In this document: piece after piece, positions 3,677-38,643 of the stretch
Layout: every line of letters starts with the position of its first letter
Position numbering within the stretch: the stretch's first letter is position 1
Virus record (IMG/VR): IMGVR_UViG_2877948078_000004
Length of the DNA: 43,880 nucleotides
DNA from: a virus
Taxonomy: Duplodnaviria; Heunggongvirae; Uroviricota; Caudoviricetes
Reading direction: 5' to 3' (one strand)
Made by a program: the position numbers and the translations under genes
The notes under the pieces: generated by a model
What the model was told of the DNA's origin: nothing
Database searches by the model: none
Seen by the model: the letters and a program-made list of their open reading frames with translations, nothing else

Positions 3677-4276
3677 TCAGAATTTATAACCGACACCCAC
3701 GATGAAACCGTCAGTGCGCCAGTCACCACTGCCGGAGCCTTCATAAGCAATATCAATGGCCACGGATTCGGTCGGGTTAAACTGCACGCCAGCCCCCCAC
3801 GCCAGAGACGTGTTGCTGTGGCGACCGTCATCACTTCCGGTCAGCACATCGTGCTTTTTCCCCTTGTTGTCAGTTACGCGAAGATAATCCCCGGAGAAAG
3901 TCGACACACGGCTGTAAGCTACACCCGCCATCGCATACGCGCTGAACCATTCATTCACGGGCACAGACGGCCCCGCCATTACGCTGAACCAGCGGTTACG
4001 AACGGAATCTTCATGCCAGCGGGTATCGCTGTAACGGGTCAGCTGGCGATTCTTGTCTCCTGCATAGCTGAATGACGTCACCAGCCCCAGTGTGTCCGTA
4101 AACTCATAACGGTATTTCACGTTAATCCCGTTCAGATCATCACTGCCGGGGACGTTCGTCGAGGCATGAAGATACCCCGCGCTCAGCGTGGACTGATGTT
4201 CAGACGCCCATGCAGGCGCACCGGATACGGCCAGACAAATGGCTGCGGACAAAATTGCTGCACAAACTTTACGCAT
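3677..4276 (-). CDS. lom: Outer membrane protein Lom (Ail/Lom family), lysogen-expressed moron
   Basis: 199 aa with signal peptide (MRKVCAAILSAAICLAVSGAPAWA) and beta-barrel-like C-terminus ending GYKF; sequence recognisably lambda Lom; sits between J and stf as in lambda. Confidence 0.9.
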   Translation of the reverse strand: MRKVCAAILSAAICLAVSGAPAWASEHQSTLSAGYLHASTNVPGSDDLNGINVKYRYEFTDTLGLVTSFSYAGDKNRQLTRYSDTRWHEDSVRNRWFSVMAGPSVPVNEWFSAYAMAGVAYSRVSTFSGDYLRVTDNKGKKHDVLTGSDDGRHSNTSLAWGAGVQFNPTESVAIDIAYEGSGSGDWRTDGFIVGVGYKF

Positions 4277-4298
4277 AATTACCTCTCGCTTTTCTGCA

Positions 4299-4346: not shown

Positions 4347-7300
4347 TCAACGAATACTGATGCCGGAAGCGGCTTTTTTGGTCACAATCACCGTACAGTC
4401 GGTGATATTGCCTGCCCCCTGATTGCCTTTCTGGAAAATCTTAAACTCCAGAGTGACGCTTCCCCTGCCACTCGGCATATCAATAACTGCACTGTAACTA
4501 CCGGGAATGGCCCCTTTAGTTTCTCTGGATGCGATTAATACGCCGTTTTTGCGAACTTCAAAACCATAACCCGTGTATCGCGTGCCTCCTGGGTTATTTC
4601 CGCTCCCCGGATCGTCATACGCTATACCGTTAAAAATAATGGGCGGAATAATAATCTGGCGGTCAAAGTTATGATCATCGCTGATGGTGACTGTAACCGT
4701 ACCGTTTGGTGTTTCCGTGTTACCCCACGTACCGACTTTTTTCGGGAAGGCTTTTGATACAGCTTTAACGAAATCTCCTCTGACCTGGGTCGCCTCCAGC
4801 ATGCCCTTAATCGTACAGTTCTGGTTAATCGTGACATTGTTGAGCGTTCCTGAGTTCGCATTCACACTGCCACTGATATCCGCATTTTTCGCCGTCAGTC
4901 TCCCGTCTGATGTCAGGGAAAATGCCGGAGGATTACCGCCGCTGGTAATGGTGGGGGCCGTCAGGCGTTTCAGGAACACTTCATTCATGAATATCTGATC
5001 GCCCTGACCAACAAACATCGGCTTTGTGTTGCCATTCGCAGGATTAATCATCGCAATCCTGTCTGCTGCCAGCAGCACCTGACTCTGCATGCCGTCAGGG
5101 GTGTTCTCAATACCGGCACCGATACCCGCAATATAAAGGCGTCCGTCCTGCATCTGCTGCAGCTTCACTGCCCACATGCTGTTCAGGTTATTATTTGTAT
5201 CAACCTGAACCTTCTGTATCTGCTGGATCGCTGCACTCTGGTCTTCCAGTTTCTTATTGACGGTCTGTGTTATTTCATTGCTGACATCCGTTATGGACGT
5301 CCTGATTTCAGTCAGGTCAGGCGCAAGCTGACCGTTATCAATCTGCGTCCACAGCTCCTGAGCCAGATGGGTTTTCCCTATCTCGCCTTTGAAAAAATCC
5401 AGATAGCCTGATGCATCATCACTCGGCTGACCGACAGCCTCCACGAATGCCGATTTGCCAACGGTGTTCACACTGCGAACGTAAAAATAATAATCATGGC
5501 CCGGTTTGATATTGATACTGGCGGCTATCCAGTACAGTGCCGTACCAAGATAACGCGCGCTGGTTTCAACCTGCCTGATATCCGCAATCCGTTTTTCCGA
5601 GAACCAGAACTCAAACTGTACCGTCGGGTCATAAACCGCAAGATGCGGCGTGGCGGTTATCTGAAAATAGCCCGGCGTCAGCTCAATCCGCGACGGCGCT
5701 GCCGGTGCGGCAATCCGGAACGATACCGACGCCGGATCGCCCTGCTGCCCCCACGCATTTACTGCCCGGACTGTCAGCCTGTAGTTCCCCAGAGCCAGTT
5801 GTGTGAAGCGGTAAGTGGTTTCCGTCGTCCGGGCCGTGCTGACCAGCCGCTCACGGCCGTCATCCGCTGCCACGGTCAGGCGAAGCAGGAAGCTCACGCC
5901 CTTCACCACCTTCGGCGTGTCCCAGCGCGCCAGCACCTGGTATTCCCCGCTGTCTGCGGTGACTTCTGCGGTCAGGTGCTGCACCGCTGGCGGCGTGACA
6001 CCATTTACCGTGCCGCTCTGGTCGCCGTCAAAGTGCGCCCCGTTATCCACGATGGCCTCTTTTTCCGGTACATGCTGCACGGCGGTGATGGCATACGTGC
6101 CGTCGTCGTTCTCACGGATACTCACGCAGCGGAACAGGCGCTGGCGCAACGTCGGCAGCTTCAGCCCCCATACGCTGTATTCAGCAACGCCGTCAGGAAC
6201 ACGGCTCACTTTCACCTTCACGCCGTCGGTGACGGACTGAACCTCCACGCTGACCGGACTCCCCTGCCCGTCAACCAGGCTTATCAGCGTGGTGCCGGAA
6301 GATGGCAGCGTGATTTCACGGTCGAGCGTCAGCGTCCGGGTCTGGCTGTTTACCGCCAGCACGCGCCCGCCGGTGCTGATACCGGCATAGTCATCATCGC
6401 AGATTTCAATGACATCGCCCGGTACATGGCGAAGCCCTTCGGCACCCACGCTGAAGTCCACGGTCTGCGTTTCCAGCAGTTCTGTTTTAATCAGCCACAG
6501 CCCGGCGCGGTGTGCCTGCCCCCGGCTGGTACAGCCAAAAGCATCCATCTTCGTGACGTTACGACCGTAACGGGCAATGGCCTGCGTGTCCTCCACAAGC
6601 TCTGTCGCCGTCTCCCAGCCGTTATTCGGGTCAATCCAGTTCACCTCAACGGCATTATGGCGGTCCTTCAGGGCGCTGAAGCTGTAGCGGAACGGCGCAC
6701 CATCATCCGGCATCACCACATTACTGCGGTTATAGGTCCACACCTTATCCGACGGTCGGTCCTGCACGAACGTCAGCGTCTGCCCGTTCCATACCGGCAT
6801 ACAGCGCATCGCAGAGCAGAAATCACTGAGCACATCCCACGCCTTGCGCTGTGTGGTCAGGTACGCATTACAGGTGATGCGCGGCTCCGTGCCGCCAAAA
6901 CCGTCCGGCACCGACTGATCGCAATGCTGGCCGATGACATACAGCGCCCATTTGTCCACATCCGCCGCACCAAGACGTTTCCCCATGCCGTAGCGCGGAT
7001 GGGTCAGCATATCCCACAGACACCAGGCCATGTTGTTGCTGTATGCTGGCTTAAACGTTCCGTCCCAGATACCGCTGTATTGCCGCGTCTGCGGGTTATA
7101 GTTCGACGGCACCTGCAGAATGCGCCCGCGCAGATGATAATTACGGCTCACCTGCTGGCTGCCGAACTGCTCCGAATCCACCTGCACGCCGACCAGTGCC
7201 GTGTTCGGGTAGCACTGTTTCACATCGATGATTTCGGTGTATGACGACCAGAGCGTTTTGTTCTGCAGCTGGTCTGTGGTGCTGTCCGGCGTCATCCTGC

Positions 7301-25096: not shown

Positions 25097-25390
25097 ATGA
25101 AAAAAATGCTACTCGCTACTGCGCTGGCCCTGCTTATTACAGGATGTGCTCAACAGACATTTACTGTTCAAAACAAACAGACAGCAGTAGCACCAAAGGA
25201 AACCATCACCCATCATTTCTTCGTTTCTGGAATTGGGCAGAAGAAAACTGTCGATGCAGCTAAAATTTGTGGCGGCGCAGAAAATGTTGTTAAAACAGAA
25301 ACCCAGCAAACATTCGTAAATGGATTGCTCGGTTTTATTACTTTAGGCATTTATACTCCGCTGGAAGCGCGTGTGTATTGCTCAAAATAA
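25097..25390 (+). CDS. bor: Bor lipoprotein (serum-resistance moron)
   Basis: 97 aa with lipoprotein signal (MKKMLLATALALLITGC), near-identical to lambda Bor as I recall it. Confidence 0.9.
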   Translation: MKKMLLATALALLITGCAQQTFTVQNKQTAVAPKETITHHFFVSGIGQKKTVDAAKICGGAENVVKTETQQTFVNGLLGFITLGIYTPLEARVYCSK

Positions 25391-27181: not shown

Positions 27182-28264
27182 ATGAAAAAATTAACAGTGG
27201 CAATTTCTGCTGTAGCTGCATCAGTACTGATGGCGATGTCTGCTCAGGCAGCTGAAATTTATAATAAAGACAGTAACAAGCTGGATCTATATGGGAAAGT
27301 TAATGCCAAGCACTACTTCTCCTCTAATGATGCAGATGATGGTGATACTACTTATGCCCGTCTTGGCTTCAAAGGTGAAACCCAAATCAACGATCAACTG
27401 ACTGGTTTCGGTCAGTGGGAATATGAATTCAAAGGCAACCGCGCTGAATCTCAAGGCTCCTCCAAAGACAAAACCCGTCTTGCATTTGCAGGCCTGAAAT
27501 TCGGGGACTACGGCTCAATCGATTACGGCCGTAACTACGGTGTAGCATATGACATCGGTGCGTGGACTGACGTTCTGCCAGAATTCGGTGGCGATACCTG
27601 GACCCAAACAGATGTGTTCATGACTGGTCGCACCACTGGTGTTGCAACTTATCGTAACAACGACTTCTTTGGTCTGGTTGATGGTCTGAACTTTGCTGCT
27701 CAGTATCAGGGTAAAAATGACCGCACTGACGTAACTGAAGCTAATGGTGATGGTTTCGGTTTCTCCACTACTTATGAGTATGAAGGATTCGGTGTAGGTG
27801 CAACCTATGCTAAATCTGACCGCACTAATAATCAGGTTATCTACGGTAACAACAGCCTGAATGCATCTGGTCAAAATGCTGAAGTATGGGCAGCTGGTCT
27901 GAAATATGATGCGAACAACATCTATCTGGCTACCACCTATTCTGAAACCCAGAACATGACTGTTTTTGGTAATAACCATATTGCCAACAAAGCACAAAAC
28001 TTCGAAGTAGTTGCACAATATCAGTTCGACTTCGGTCTGCGTCCGTCCGTTGCTTACCTGCAATCTAAAGGAAAAGACTTGGGTGCGTGGGGTGATCAGG
28101 ACCTGGTTGAATATATTGATGTAGGTGCAACCTATTACTTCAACAAAAATATGTCCACTTTTGTTGATTACAAAATCAACCTGATTGATAAGAGCGATTT
28201 CACGAAAGCATCTGGCGTTGCTACCGATGATATCGTTGCTGTAGGTATGGTTTACCAGTTCTAA
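27182..28264 (+). CDS. nmpC: OmpC/OmpF-family general porin (phage Lc / NmpC-like lysogenic-conversion porin)
   Basis: 360 aa with signal peptide ([23 protein letters not shown]), AEIYNKD… mature N-terminus, C-terminal …VGMVYQF beta-barrel signature; sits between Q and the lysis genes, opposite strand, as in DLP12/PA-2. Confidence 0.85.
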
Positions 28265-30326: not shown

Positions 30327-30354
30327 GCTTCACCTCCGCAGAGATCAAACGCTG

Positions 30355-30460
30355 GATGCAAAAAAACGCAGGTGCATTTCTGCATCTGTGGCAAGGCGAG
30401 GAGTTCAACTTGTGGTCGCATATAATTTCCCAATCATATGCGCAGAAGTCACCGCAGGGT
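30355..30460. repeat. Copy A of a ~105-bp imperfect direct repeat (terminator-like hairpin on - strand)
   Basis: Shares exact 21-mer AGGTGCATTTCTGCATCTGTG (30370..30390) and 15-mer GCGCAGAAGTCACCG (30441..30455) with copy B at 31852..31872 and 31922..31936; on - strand the 21-mer forms CAGATGCA-GAAA-TGCACCTG followed by U7. Confidence 0.7.
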
Positions 30461-30496
30461 GTTCAGGCCAACGGTGACGGTATTATTGCTTATTGA

Positions 30497-30748
30497 TTAT
30501 GATTTTTCAATTTCATCAATAACCTTGTGATAGACAATACCAGAAAGGCCAACAGACAGTGGATGTTCATGAAATATTGGCTCATTTGCATAAACCCAAT
30601 GCCCGACAAATTCTTCTGGGCTTGATATGTATAACTCACGAAGAAAATGGAGATCCCTCTCTACAACTAATTTCGTATCGTCCAAGAGCGCTGCATTTAC
30701 GCTAGTTTTATGGCTGTGCATTAATTTACATTTGGTGAAGGACATCAT
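30497..30748 (-). CDS. Hypothetical protein (83 aa)
   Basis: ORF with strong AAGGAG RBS; no recognisable family. Confidence 0.5.
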   Translation of the reverse strand: MMSFTKCKLMHSHKTSVNAALLDDTKLVVERDLHFLRELYISSPEEFVGHWVYANEPIFHEHPLSVGLSGIVYHKVIDEIEKS

Positions 30749-30807
30749 GGCAAAAGCTCCTTTTTCTTATGAATCCATATGTTAGCTAAATTGGAGAGAC
30801 ACAGTAG

Positions 30808-31422
30808 CTAACGTTGTTTAATAACATTCTGACGCAAATGTGGCAATACTCGACTCCACTTATCATCCTGCCACGGCTGGAATTTTACATGTGCCGTTTC
30901 TCTGGCGAGGATTGCTCGCGCTCTGGTGAGTATCTGGGGATATTCTTGCTCGATGGAAGTGAAGCGACCAGCTTCACGATGCTCCGCAACCTGAAGAAGG
31001 GGAGTAACGTTCTGGCAGGCGGTTAACATCGCATCCCCAGCTCGCCATAACCAAGCAAGTGTGCAAAGTTCGTTATCAGTGAATTGTTTTGTGATCGGGG
31101 ATTGTTGAACTTCTCGATCGAGAATATCCAGAACCCAGCGGCGGAACTCTTTGGCTACAGGAGTTCGTGCAAACATGGCGATCAAATGGGCTCCGCGAAG
31201 GCTAAATACTCGAGACTCCTGCATTCCACGAGGGGTGGTCACTTTGACCACCCTTGTCATCATATCTGTAAATTCATCTGAGTGACGAGAGTAAATGCGC
31301 TGAACTGCTTTATCGTCCGCATATTCCAGAGCTAAACCAACTTCAGTGGCAGTAAGCCAAATTCTGTTATTGTGGCAAATTGGGGTAAACGTCGTTTTGT
31401 GGAATGCTAATTGAGTAGTCAT
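30808..31422 (-). CDS. Bro-N domain protein (putative antirepressor-like / DNA-binding)
   Basis: 204 aa; N-terminal region (…NNRIWLTATEVGLALEYADDKAVQRIYSRHSDEF…SLRGAHLIAMFARTPVAKEFRRWVLDILDREV) fits the Bro-N/KilA-N-like pattern; GAGGTGA RBS. Confidence 0.5.
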   Translation of the reverse strand: MTTQLAFHKTTFTPICHNNRIWLTATEVGLALEYADDKAVQRIYSRHSDEFTDMMTRVVKVTTPRGMQESRVFSLRGAHLIAMFARTPVAKEFRRWVLDILDREVQQSPITKQFTDNELCTLAWLWRAGDAMLTACQNVTPLLQVAEHREAGRFTSIEQEYPQILTRARAILARETAHVKFQPWQDDKWSRVLPHLRQNVIKQR

Positions 31423-31775: not shown

Positions 31776-31835
31776 ATCACCTTTAGCCGCCAGACGAATA
31801 GAGACTCCCAATTCTGGCTGTCGAAGTAAAACACC

Positions 31836-31943
31836 GAATGTAAAAAATCGTAGGTGCATTTCTGCATCTGTGAATGGAGAAGATAGGTTGGATTGTATGT
31901 GCGCATAAACGTCCCCGTTTAGCGCAGAAGTCACCGGAGTTGT
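31836..31943. repeat. Copy B of the ~105-bp imperfect direct repeat
   Basis: See copy A; the central ~50 bp differs between copies. Confidence 0.7.
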
Positions 31944-32033
31944 TCAGGCTCCGGCTTATTAATATTGCCTACTTACAATTAATTTTTCAACTGTTAGAAA
32001 CTTATAATTAGCTGTCTCTTTGTAACTATCAAT

Positions 32034-33930
32034 TTAATTATTTTTCTTTAACTTGAAATTTCTTCCCATTGCTAGTGTTCTTCGAAGATTCGAATCATAA
32101 GCTGGTTGATAATATCTATCATAAAAATCCTTAATTGTCTGATGGTAAGTATCCAGCATCAAACCATAAAACCCCATGACCTTAAGATAATCCACCAAGG
32201 GAAATAAATAATCATCAGTCTGAACATCAGTATCAATATTATTTTTTTGTTTTTTAACTTCAAATTTGTATAAGTTTAACTCACCCTTATCCATCGTGTA
32301 TGAAAAAAGGTCGTCAAAAATCAAATCAATTTTTGTCATAGGAACTCGTTCTTTTCCAGACATTATAGGTAGAATATCAATACCTAAGAGCGAACCTAAT
32401 ACAAAGTCGTAATGAAGCGAAATCACTGAGTCATTCGATGTCGAGTTGCCTTTGATAAATACTCTACTTAGTGCCGAGTCAAAAACATTCTCAACTCTCT
32501 CTCTCGTCATGTTTGCGACATCTACAACCCCCATATCACGAGAAGCTTTTATTGTGATTTCATCTATAAATGCTTTGGAATCTAGTGAATGTAAAAACAA
32601 CATGAAGTTATCTAACTGTTCAGAGCATTTAATAGCCACCATAAGATTTTCGTATATATCTTTTTTATACTCAATCGGTAAATTTGCTACCGCAAAAGCA
32701 GCATAAAATTCTTGCACTGATTTATGCAGAAAAACATACCTATTATTTCCCTCAGGTTGGATAAGGCAAGTTATCTCAATAAGATCATCTATAAAGTTTG
32801 ATGCATCTTCTTTAAGATAACCTTCTGTTTCAATAGCATCTTCAGCATATCTAAGCAACTCCTCTCCCCAAAACTCAAATTTCTCCTCAATCAGTGCGTT
32901 ATAGCAAATAGCTGAAAAACACAATTTAGCTTTTTCACCAATAATGTTTGATTTTTTCTCGCGCGTATATACTTTTATTTTATCATGCCTTGCATATAAG
33001 GTGTCAAAGAGGCTTCGATAAAACTCTATTATATTATTTGGAATATCATTCATATAAGGATAACAATAATACAAAAGAGTAACTAAAATTGGATTGCAAA
33101 TAGTTCCCTCAAGTTCTTCTTTATCACATAGTAAATCCGCCAAGACTTTAAACGAGGCATCACTACTTGAGAATCTGTCATTTTTCGATAAAGAATGAAG
33201 AATACAAATCTTATCAGAAATATTTAGCTTATCTATAAAAATATTATACACATCAGTAGTATAACATATATCTGTATTTGGTCTCGTTGTTGCGATAATT
33301 GGTGTGTTAAAATGATAATGAATGTTTTTTATTTCATTCATCATCATAGTTCGCTCTTCATGTTTAACCTCATCAAATCCATCCAACATTAAAACGACTC
33401 TTTGGGATTGCAGTAATATTTTCAAGCTATCCTCTGAACACCCCACACCAAATGAATTAAGAATGTCTGCCAGATAAGCAATAATATTTGCATTCTTCAC
33501 CCTTCTTAATTCAATAAAAAAAAGGCATCCGTTCTGATTTTTTTATTTCCTCGCTAAACAACTTGCGTAAAATAGTACTTTTCCCTTGCCCCGCTATACC
33601 GACTATATTTACAATACCATGAAATGGTAAAGTGACCCCATCTTTTATAACGACCTTGTCTTTATTAGATGCCACCTCAACAGTTAACGGATAATAAATA
33701 TCATCTAAAAAAATATCATAATCAGCGTTGTGCAAAGTTCTCATTTTCAGAGATGGTAGCACATGCTTTCTTAAATAATTTTCTCTTCCGAGGGGATCAT
33801 TTAATTGTTCGAGTATAACCTTGCCTTCATCTAGGTCCCTAGCCCAAGGTTTAGAGAGCAATACTTCTGTTATTTTTTCCGCAGCTTTTCCTACTGTGCT
33901 ATTAATAATAGTCGCAAGAAACTCATCCAT
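32034..33930 (-). pseudogene. NACHT/STAND-family P-loop NTPase, interrupted by a +1 frameshift at an A8/T8 homopolymer (33516..33523)
   Basis: Upstream ORF (33511..33987) ends just after Walker A (GIAGQGKST); downstream ORF (32034..33500) begins just before Walker B (VVLMLDGFDEV) and sensor-1-like IIATTRP. Removing one T from the T8 run (- strand) fuses both into a single ~630-aa reading frame. Low-GC island. Probable start at MDEFLATI (33930) with GGTGA RBS. Confidence 0.6.
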
Positions 33931-34318
33931 TTTTTCACCACATTCATTAACCAATACGTGGTGCATTCTTACAAGACTCAGTAACAATTGTCAATCATAG
34001 GTTTTCGCATGATTGCAAAACGCCATAAACAATTGTAGCACCATAATTTTAAACACTATATAATATACAACCTTCCTACAAGCATTCAGTACATCGCTTA
34101 ATCACAGGGCTTGAATATATAGTAAGGAATCGATATTAATCACCTCATCTACTTTAAACATCTTACACACCTATAATTTATAATAGTCAACACGAGGTCA
34201 TCATATTAAACATGCAATTACAAACATTCATTTTTATATAAATTTTCATGATTTAACCGTAGAGCGACGGTAATAAATTTCATATACAAGGATTTAAGCT
34301 CCCATACGTTTTCTATTA

Positions 34319-34498
34319 TTAAAAATAACATACCGTTCGCCAGACCTTACCATCAATGACCAGGATTCCTGCCCGCGCCATTTTTGCCGCAGCCTGATTT
34401 ATGCTGGTTAATGTCACACCTGTTGTCGCAGCAACGTCCGGCGCACAGAAGCTCTTGTGCGTCCCCAGGTAATGAATAATTGCTTCTTTTCCCGTCAT
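34319..34498 (-). CDS. ren: Ren-like protein, C-terminally truncated relative to lambda Ren
   Basis: 59 codons MTGKEAIIHYLGTHKSFCAPDVAATTGVTLTSINQAAAKMARAGILVIDGKVWRTV… match the N-terminal part of lambda Ren; stops where similarity to lambda ends; start overlaps P stop (ATGA). Confidence 0.6.
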   Translation of the reverse strand: MTGKEAIIHYLGTHKSFCAPDVAATTGVTLTSINQAAAKMARAGILVIDGKVWRTVCYF

Positions 34499-35196
34499 AC
34501 ACTGGCTCCTTTCAGTCCGAACTTAGCTTTGATTTCTGCAATCTTCGCCAGAGCCTGTGCACGATTTAGAGGTCTACCGCCCATGACAGGAAGTTGTTTT
34601 ACTGGTTCAGGTATAGCCTCACCACGGTTAATTCTCGCAGTCATATGGGCAAGTTCATCGGCAGCCTTGCGCCGTAATTCCGAGTCAGTCAACGCATTAG
34701 CCCGCATGTTCTGATACAGGTTGGTAACCAGCCAGTAGTGCGCGTTTGATTTCCACGGATAAGACTCTGCGTCCGGATACAGGCCACGCTTCCGGCAATA
34801 CTCGTAAACCATATCAACCAGCTCGCTGGCGTTTGGCAGTCCGGCGGTAACGGATGCTTCTTCCCGGCACCAGGCGACAAACTGCCCGGGTGATGGCAGG
34901 AATGGTCGATTCTGCCGACGGGCTACGCGCATTCCTGCGTTAACCTGTTCCATTGTGGTGATCCCGTTTTCCCGGAAAGCCAGAACCCACTGGCGGCGGA
35001 TTTCGTTCAGTTCGTTCTGGTCCCGGTTAGCCAGGCTCGCCGGGAAAGTTGCCAGTAACTGGCTGAACACACCGTTGATGATCCGCGCTACCTGCTGTAC
35101 CTGCGGCTTTTCGTCGTACTGTTCCGGCATGTTGTTGGCGATCCGGCGCATCTGCTCACGGTCAAAGTTAACCATCTGTGCGGCGATGTTTTTCAT
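34495..35196 (-). CDS. P: Replication protein P (DnaB helicase loader)
   Basis: 233 aa, near-identical to lambda P as I recall it (MKNIAAQMVNFDREQMRRIANNMPEQYDEKPQVQQVA…). Confidence 0.95.
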   Translation of the reverse strand: MKNIAAQMVNFDREQMRRIANNMPEQYDEKPQVQQVARIINGVFSQLLATFPASLANRDQNELNEIRRQWVLAFRENGITTMEQVNAGMRVARRQNRPFLPSPGQFVAWCREEASVTAGLPNASELVDMVYEYCRKRGLYPDAESYPWKSNAHYWLVTNLYQNMRANALTDSELRRKAADELAHMTARINRGEAIPEPVKQLPVMGGRPLNRAQALAKIAEIKAKFGLKGASV

Positions 35197-37923: not shown

Positions 37924-38187
37924 ATGAGTAATAAAACACTTGTTAAAAAATCAAATAACTGTGTCGATGCATACGCCGACGCGTTTGGCTACTCTTCGTT
38001 TGGTGACGGCTCTCAGCGCCTAGGTTCAATTTCTTTTTTTCATAATGTAACTGAATGGCCTGTTGATGAAAGTGACGATGTTGAGAACATAAAGTACAAC
38101 ATTGCAACCATTAGAATGCCCGAAGAATTGATGCTTAAATTGGCTGACTTCATTCGCGACCAGCATGACAAAGCTAAAACAAACTAA
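37924..38187 (+). CDS. Hypothetical protein (87 aa) co-oriented downstream of cI (rexA position)
   Basis: ORF in AT-rich segment immediately after cI, same strand; no recognisable family. Confidence 0.5.
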   Translation: MSNKTLVKKSNNCVDAYADAFGYSSFGDGSQRLGSISFFHNVTEWPVDESDDVENIKYNIATIRMPEELMLKLADFIRDQHDKAKTN

Positions 38188-38199
38188 TCGTAATTAATT

Positions 38200-38643
38200 A
38201 TGAAACACGATTATTACGAAGCTCCAAACCTAAATGATAAAATTGCAAAGGCGGCAGAATCATTTTGTTTGCACTCCAGTGCGTCTTCCCAGCTAGCAGG
38301 TATATCTGGAAAAAGATGGGACATGCTACAATCAAGTGGTAGCAGTGGGTCTGGGAGTGATAACATGCCTGAAAAAGTTGCAAAACTGGAGTCCGATGTT
38401 GCTCATATCAAACGAGACGTTGATGAACTTAAAACAGACGTTAAAGCTATCGACAAAAATATGATAACTATTCTTGCACGTCTGGACTCTATAAAAGAAT
38501 CCTTAACAAACAAGCCATCAAGTGATGCTGTCGATAGAAAGATTTCAGACGCAAAGCTTGCGGTATTGCTTGGTGTTCCAGCAATCATCGCTGCAGGAAC
38601 AGGACTTTATAAGCTATCAATGTACTTTTTCTTTAGTGCTTAA
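38200..38643 (+). CDS. Hypothetical protein (147 aa) with coiled-coil region and C-terminal transmembrane helix (rexB position)
   Basis: Heptad-like charged region (KVAKLESDVAHIKRDVDELKTDVKAIDKNMITILARLDSIKESL) and C-terminal hydrophobic segment (LAVLLGVPAIIAAGTGLYKLSMYFFF). Confidence 0.5.
   Translation: MKHDYYEAPNLNDKIAKAAESFCLHSSASSQLAGISGKRWDMLQSSGSSGSGSDNMPEKVAKLESDVAHIKRDVDELKTDVKAIDKNMITILARLDSIKESLTNKPSSDAVDRKISDAKLAVLLGVPAIIAAGTGLYKLSMYFFFSA

Follow-up and report, generated by a model that had tools for sequence, protein, structure and literature searches.

A truncated ren gene at the boundary of a low-GC NACHT cassette in a lambdoid prophage of Escherichia coli

The 59-codon open reading frame (ORF) that follows replication gene P in the prophage of Escherichia coli 2014C-4135 is very probably a pseudogene remnant of the lambdoid ren gene, made by a recombination that joined a NACHT cassette to ren at codon 58. 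Codons 59-96 of ren are lost at a fixed breakpoint (Table 1), which was identical in every copy of the cassette that we inspected. The feature is real. As a mosaic junction in a region known to be variable it is ordinary, and the PGAP annotation already flags it. The additions made here are modest: the junction looks old and is constant, it falls at a domain boundary, the remnant decays, the neighbouring NACHT gene is frameshifted, and the modules of the region are bracketed by linkers.

The window, that is, the whole stretch of 43,880 nucleotides analysed, matched the E. coli 2014C-4135 chromosome (NZ_CP027310.1) with 100% identity, and there it represents a complete lambda-like (lambdoid) prophage. 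The genes recognized included a DLP12-type integrase (intD), the Red genes gam, bet and exo, a cI-like S24 repressor, O and P, together with the nin-region genes ybcN, ninE, ybcO and rusA, Q, the lysis genes, and head and tail genes of lambda type. The early-right operon is located on the minus strand.

Table 1. Features around the ren remnant, in window coordinates
Feature	Position	Strand	Remarks
Linker copy 2	30347..30468		Immediately upstream of ybcN/ninB
Optional module: Bro-N/P22AR-C (Rha/Ant-like) gene and 83-aa ORF	30497..31422	-	Missing in some NACHT-island carriers
Linker copy 1 (left backbone flank)	31829..31953		Conserved, ~120 bp; 8-bp-stem hairpin 31934-31954 at its end
Cassette 3' untranslated end	31954..32033	-	Left island boundary 31953/31954
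NACHT C-terminal fragment, 488-aa ORF from GTG	32034..33500	-	Walker B/NACHT signature LDGFDE and putatively repeat-free C-terminal region
NACHT N-terminal fragment, 139 aa, Walker A GIAGQGKS	33511..33930	-	Ended by frameshift
Homopolymer A8 (T8 in gene sense)	33516..33523		A7 in intact alleles; +1 frameshift
Promoter-like region and 5' leader of NACHT gene	33931..34020	-	-35 TTGACA at 33994-33989; TG-extended -10 ending 33965
AT-rich fast-evolving cassette spacer, no convincing ORF	34021..34324	-	60% identity between two cassette alleles; GC about 0.29-0.35
ren remnant ORF, 59 codons and stop	34319..34498	-	Codons 1-58 (34325-34498) ren-homologous; codon 59 and stop belong to island
Recombination breakpoint, right end of low-GC island	34325..34326		DNA alignments and blastn
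Replication gene P	34495..35196	-	Conserved right-hand backbone flank; 94-97% identical to lambda and other lambdoid P genes

Through tblastn, residues 1-58 of lambda Ren (96 aa in full) matched window positions 34498-34325 with 87.9% identity (E = 5e-32). The 59-aa product of the remnant ORF is MTGKEAIIHYLGTHKSFCAPDVAATTGVTLTSINQAAAKMARAGILVIDGKVWRTVCYF; it contains the N-terminal ~60-aa conserved region of Ren, a predicted winged helix, and ends with a single foreign codon (Phe59) before the stop. The original prediction had described a match to the first ~55 residues of Ren, followed by divergence and a stop after a few more codons. The N-terminal match and the quick stop were found as described, but ~58 residues are kept rather than ~55, and only one codon is foreign. 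No Ren model was found in Pfam or NCBIfam, and of the PHROG Ren profile (phrog_142) only positions 11-68 of 116 were covered by the remnant. The gene order agreed with an assignment to ren, the remnant being located immediately downstream of P with its start overlapping the P stop codon (ATGA). Neither the ORF nor any other part of the window contained the C-terminal ~36-40 residues of Ren (ATREEREGK...KECRQSAAMKRVLAVYG), and RefSeq/PGAP labels 34325-34498 as 'protein ren; incomplete; missing C-terminus', a pseudogene. Judged from the sister allele L020, which still has TAT at this codon, Cys57 of the remnant is a later point change of Tyr57.

The end of the ren homology was placed by alignment with lambda ren and with the ren genes of related prophages. 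In blastn, the homology to six intact ren genes ended at window position 34326; in the DNA alignments the last unambiguous ren base fell at 34331-34333 and scattered matches reached 34326. The window, lambda and four other intact ren genes had the stretch ...GGCGAACGGT / ...GGTCTGGCGAACGGT in common, after which the window continued with ATGTTATTTTTAA and the intact ren genes with GTATTACCGGTT. The G+C content fell from 51% to 32% at the same point, with values of 50.9% for the remnant, 51.1% for the P-O region and 32.2% for the next 2372 bp (31954-34325). The truncation therefore lies exactly at the boundary of the low-GC island, as had been claimed from the letters alone, and the AT-rich segment immediately downstream is indeed the one that carries the NACHT gene.

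The island (2.37 kb) contains only this gene, which encodes a NACHT NTPase. An intact allele of 631 aa, WP_044862916.1, was found in strain STEC17-190; it scored 43.8 bits against Pfam NACHT (gathering cut-off 26.7) and showed the Walker A motif GIAGQGKS at residues 111-118 and the sequence LMLDGFDEV, with D-G-F-D-E at 183-187. No other Pfam domain was found in the NACHT protein, nor any sequence relative in the PDB. Since no PADLOC 2.0 model matched it either, the protein may be named a candidate anti-phage sensor only by analogy. Upstream of the ATG at 33930 there is a promoter-like site, TTGACA-18-TG-AAGAAT, with 10/12 consensus matches. The proximal 90 nt upstream of the gene were 83% conserved between the two cassette alleles, versus 60% further upstream, which suggests that the NACHT gene might be expressed from its own putative promoter, independently of pR. 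More distant NACHT homologues (62-67% aa identity) were also located in the post-replication/nin region of other lambdoid prophages. They had no upstream spacer in common and were alike in the coding sequence only, so the boundary of the donor was not found.

The reading frame of the NACHT gene is not intact in the window, and Walker A and Walker B fall in separate ORFs. Because the 488-aa product was also present on eight other contigs, this frameshift is probably real and clonal; a different C-terminal NACHT lesion was found in strain 720632. We considered the homopolymer (T7 in intact alleles) as a contingency locus and rejected it: the run encodes conserved Pro-Phe-Phe-Ile and is interrupted in the sister allele, and we regard the frameshift as a plain mutation.

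Relatives with 95-97% identical O, P and ren-5' DNA carried a full-length ren of 95-100 aa, and then other cargo. The cargo was PD-lambda-1/DUF4041 in phage PhiR26_1 and strain B2, an acyltransferase and a lipoprotein in PhiR30_1, a 472-aa protein (weak HEC-07 match) with an 84-aa ORF in LR-50, and an HD-domain protein with DUF4041 in 23AR0806. PD-lambda-1 was recognized in the slot by PADLOC with E = 2e-198, is annotated in PV340555.1 and is also present in many E. coli prophages. At least six cargo sets were found in this slot between the same flanks, P/ren and linker/ninB, which bears out the idea that the ren-nin interval is a hotspot for cargo; in lambda nothing is located between ren and ninB.

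The tails of the full-length ren genes varied with the cargo after about codon 89-93 (...VYGVKR, ...VYGDMNLNLL, ...FYRGNFQ, ...LYGRE and ...VYGRLVIT, read in loci L003-L007 and L012), which places the usual right-hand limit of the cargo among the last 4-8 codons of the gene. With the NACHT cassette, ren is cut about 35 codons deeper than that. On the left side, the boundary 31953/31954 was common to the NACHT, acyltransferase and HEC-07-like cargos, and the PD-lambda-1 cargo ended 27 bp further in. The two linker copies of the window were 74-86% identical, 1482 bp apart, and located on both sides of the Rha/P22AR module; the linker looks like a recombination 'boundary sequence' for the stacking of modules. 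An empty site, with intact ren within ~650 bp of the linker, was found in 0 of 5426 E. coli genomes.

A second common short ren of 57 aa (...RTFV*) was observed in other E. coli prophages (L031-L038, positions 5001-5174; 460 contig-index blocks). It is followed by different cargo, consisting of a 164-aa protein with a weak VasI match and ORFs of 108 and 181 aa. The identity of this form to normal ren dropped sharply at codon 55, and a diverged ren 3' half, significant against shuffles in L031, still lies behind the stop codon, so the 57-aa form is a decayed gene.

The NACHT island was present in 9 of 5426 complete E. coli genomes with at least 99.4% identity, and the junction was identical in 24/24 inspected copies of the 2.37-kb island. 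A 191-nt probe spanning the junction was covered to at least 95% in all nine complete genomes, and six loci were read directly. In draft genomes the 59-aa ORF was found at seven loci; in IMG/VR eight loci contained Ren 1-58 only, the exact junction string being present in 7/8. The exact 59-aa protein sequence occurred in 591 contig-index blocks, and this short form was seen only with NACHT cargo. The carriers differed in their backbones: the Rha module was missing in ANT and L018, the O region was replaced in AR_0369, two ren-5' haplotypes were distinguished, and the Q genes differed. With different backbones and a fixed junction, either the block has moved or the backbone around it has been exchanged. 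The remnant was 87-96% identical to intact ren alleles; this range and the two haplotypes fit a remnant that may have recombined repeatedly with intact ren up to the junction. The remnant ORF was intact in 22/24 loci of the 99% allele; in ANT it contained an extra nonsense codon at codon 54, which the sister strain DAM, being near-identical to ANT, probably has as well.

A second cassette allele (L020-L022) had the same left boundary, and its NACHT gene was 85% identical to that of the window in amino acids and 81% in nucleotides. Its ren remnant stops at the same codon as that of the window and is frameshifted and 30% diverged. Along the locus, the identity of L020 to the window was 94% at the P 3' end (51 nt only), 70% in the frameshifted remnant, 69% in the upstream region, 85% in the NACHT coding sequence and 100% in the linker (29 nt only). 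Because the sister remnant ends at the same codon and has degenerated so far, the junction looks old and the remnant decays, now seen in two lineages. The simplest reading of these alignments would be a single old junction which travels with the cassette and is not recent in this strain, the remnant of the sister lineage having evolved free of constraint. Two independent junctions at the same codon stay formally admissible, and the homology between the two alleles in the first 45-58 nt after the junction was only marginal (p about 0.04). No relative of the 85% allele was confirmed in the contig scan.

Several other explanations of the short ORF were weighed against a recombination remnant. The short form could be the native full-length gene of this phage lineage, the same 59-aa ORF being present in all island carriers, and such a result would have overturned the claim of truncation. 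It is hardly credible, since the gene is long in backbones whose O, P and ren 5' part are 95-97% identical, the short form was found with one cargo only, and among the 2866 E. coli genomes that matched ren, 2474 had a copy covering at least 80% of it. The alignments with intact ren refuted it, and by the same comparison the short ren is to be read as derived, not native. An artefact of sequencing or assembly, to which the homopolymer frameshift in the neighbouring gene of the same assembly could point, is refuted by the identical junction in 24 loci, whose assemblies are independent and come from several countries and platforms, and we give it practically no credence. Somewhat less remote, though still very improbable, is a ren gene from which nothing was deleted, either split by the insertion of a mobile element or continued by a 3' half that is diverged and AT-enriched. 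MAFFT did produce scattered matches between the post-junction DNA of L020 and the 3' half of lambda ren, and the 57-aa form shows that such a diverged half can be kept elsewhere. For both the window and L020, however, local alignments of the DNA beyond the junction with ren 3' halves scored 16-18 against 15 +/- 2 for shuffles, and no displaced ren 3' half or Ren C-terminal match was found in the 43.9-kb window (best E = 0.16 for protein, 0.6 for DNA). The island contained no transposase, integrase or other recombinase gene; no terminal repeats or target-site duplications were found at its ends, and no repeats joined both ends. Tested in this way, a split or diverged 3' half was rejected for this window. 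As the 3' part of ren is nowhere in the window, it was replaced by the cargo and not split by an insertion, in agreement with the recombination junction originally proposed.

The remaining question was whether the 59-aa product might be a functional, selected short Ren, a stand-alone winged-helix protein which might retain part of the Ren activity, regulate the cassette, or make the prophage compatible with the NACHT sensor. The AlphaFold model of full-length Ren (mean pLDDT 78) showed a confident winged helix at residues 1-60 (H3-13, H19-26, H30-42, E46-52, E55-60) and a poorly predicted C-terminal part, and its Foldseek matches were winged-helix proteins of ArsR/MarR type (E about 3e-3). The cut is located at the end of the second wing strand, so that the remnant amounts to the whole predicted winged-helix domain, and for this reason some residual function is conceivable. 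PHROGs also lists a family of short Ren proteins of 57 aa (phrog_7054) and, with this N-terminal module too, a MarR-like family of 162 aa; another short form is common as well, and the ORF is intact in most carriers. Against this, the ANT remnant has a nonsense codon, and the sister-allele remnant is frameshifted and 30% diverged versus 15% in the NACHT coding sequence. An intact ORF among islands 99% identical carries no statistical weight, the 57-aa form is itself a decayed gene, and the strict co-occurrence of the remnant with the cassette needs no explanation beyond physical linkage. We consider a selected short Ren improbable. On these sequences the remnant is most likely non-functional for Ren activity, and the model and family data leave a small probability of some role for a product consisting of the winged helix only. 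We might speculate further that the cut of Ren to its winged helix was not incidental, the full-length protein being incompatible with or sensed by NACHT, or the remnant regulating the sensor; this is more doubtful still. If it were true, the cassette would persist in a lambdoid prophage only with a cut ren, and selection at the domain boundary would be the reason why identity breaks off at codons 55-58 in two cargo lineages that are unrelated.

Returning to the remnant made by recombination, we propose that a single recombination in an ancestor fused codon 58 of ren with an AT-rich cassette of foreign origin, 2.37 kb long. The cassette comprises a spacer, a putative promoter of its own and one gene, for a NACHT NTPase built like bNACHT01. 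The founding event would have deleted ren codons 59-96, and the other end of the cassette would have come to abut the conserved ~120-bp linker that normally precedes ninB/ybcN. Since the remnant directly touches the cassette, both are inherited as one block. The block has since reached several backbones of lambdoid prophages, probably through homologous recombination within its conserved flanks, with P and the 5' part of ren at one end and the linker with ninB at the other; the Red proteins of the prophage (Bet/Exo) or the host RecA could catalyse this. Without renewal by recombination with intact copies the remnant would decay, and in this strain the cargo gene is inactivated too, by the +1 homopolymer frameshift. 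Ren lets lambda escape RexAB exclusion and is dispensable in the laboratory; its loss should cost little except on Rex+ hosts. The escape from exclusion is reportedly treated by Toothman and Herskowitz (1980) and by Thomason and Court (2022).

Compared with lambda ren, the remnant has the same place directly after P with the overlapping ATGA, 88% identity over residues 1-58 and the same predicted winged helix; it differs in that residues 59-96 are missing and that it is annotated as a pseudogene. The renD gene of the K-12 prophage DLP12, whose intD type is common to the prophage of the window, is also a disrupted ren in a defective lambdoid prophage. However, renD lacks the 5' part and keeps ren positions 90-267 only (MG1655, NZ_CP025268.1 567084-567261), whereas the ren of the window lacks the 3' part. 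Variable accessory or defence slots are known from temperate phages, such as the P2/P4 hotspots (Rousset et al. 2022, PMC9122126), and lambdoid prophages carry experimentally validated defence genes such as PD-lambda-1 (Vassallo et al. 2022, PMC9519451). The slot described here resembles these in its conserved flanks, its interchangeable low-GC cargo and a cargo with its own promoter-like site. The other cargo types found here exchange just a few codons at the end of ren; the boundary of the NACHT cassette, by contrast, lies inside this backbone gene, which is destroyed.

Bacterial NLR-related antiphage proteins of the bNACHT01-like kind have a D[GAS]hDE signature after Walker B (Kibby et al., 10.1101/2022.07.19.500537). 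The cassette gene resembles bNACHT01 as a single gene of ~630 aa with a short N-terminal region and the D-G-F-D-E signature, and its Walker A lysine is at ~117, compared with K115 in bNACHT01. Its C-terminal region, in which Pfam showed no further domain, may likewise be short, repeat-free and without a fused enzymatic effector. The likeness is one of build, and in contrast to these proteins the cassette NACHT is frameshifted in the window and matched no PADLOC 2.0 model. Lambdoid phages exchange mosaic segments by relaxed homologous recombination (De Paepe et al. 2014, PMC3945230). With such mosaics the NACHT block shares conserved flanks, its occurrence in several backbones and a prophage that encodes Bet/Exo; it differs from them in that the founding junction has no detectable homology on the cargo side, and the founding junction may have arisen by illegitimate recombination.

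The locus shows at base resolution how accessory genes, probably for defence, come into lambdoid prophages and then spread as a block together with the scar of the junction. The slot between ren and ninB takes many cargo types, and the counter-defence gene ren can be lost in the exchange; current views of phage mosaicism are unchanged. For annotation, the locus provides a pseudogene of ren and a frameshifted NACHT gene whose family lies outside PADLOC 2.0.

Some further genes of the prophage were noted. An ompC-like porin gene (27182-28264) was located between Q (quuD) and the lysis genes, where the G+C content is 37-44%, and the other morons were bor (25097-25390) and a lom-like gene (3678-4277). 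Directly downstream of the cI-like repressor, where lambda has rexA/rexB, there were two hypothetical genes of 87 and 147 aa (37924-38643; ~38-40% G+C). Outside the window, residues 73-93 of lambda Ren matched the C-terminus of a DUF977 protein in a metagenomic lambdoid prophage (L025, 1610-1978) with 57% identity over 21 aa (tblastn, E = 5e-4 within a small local database), and the two proteins may have a C-terminal motif in common.
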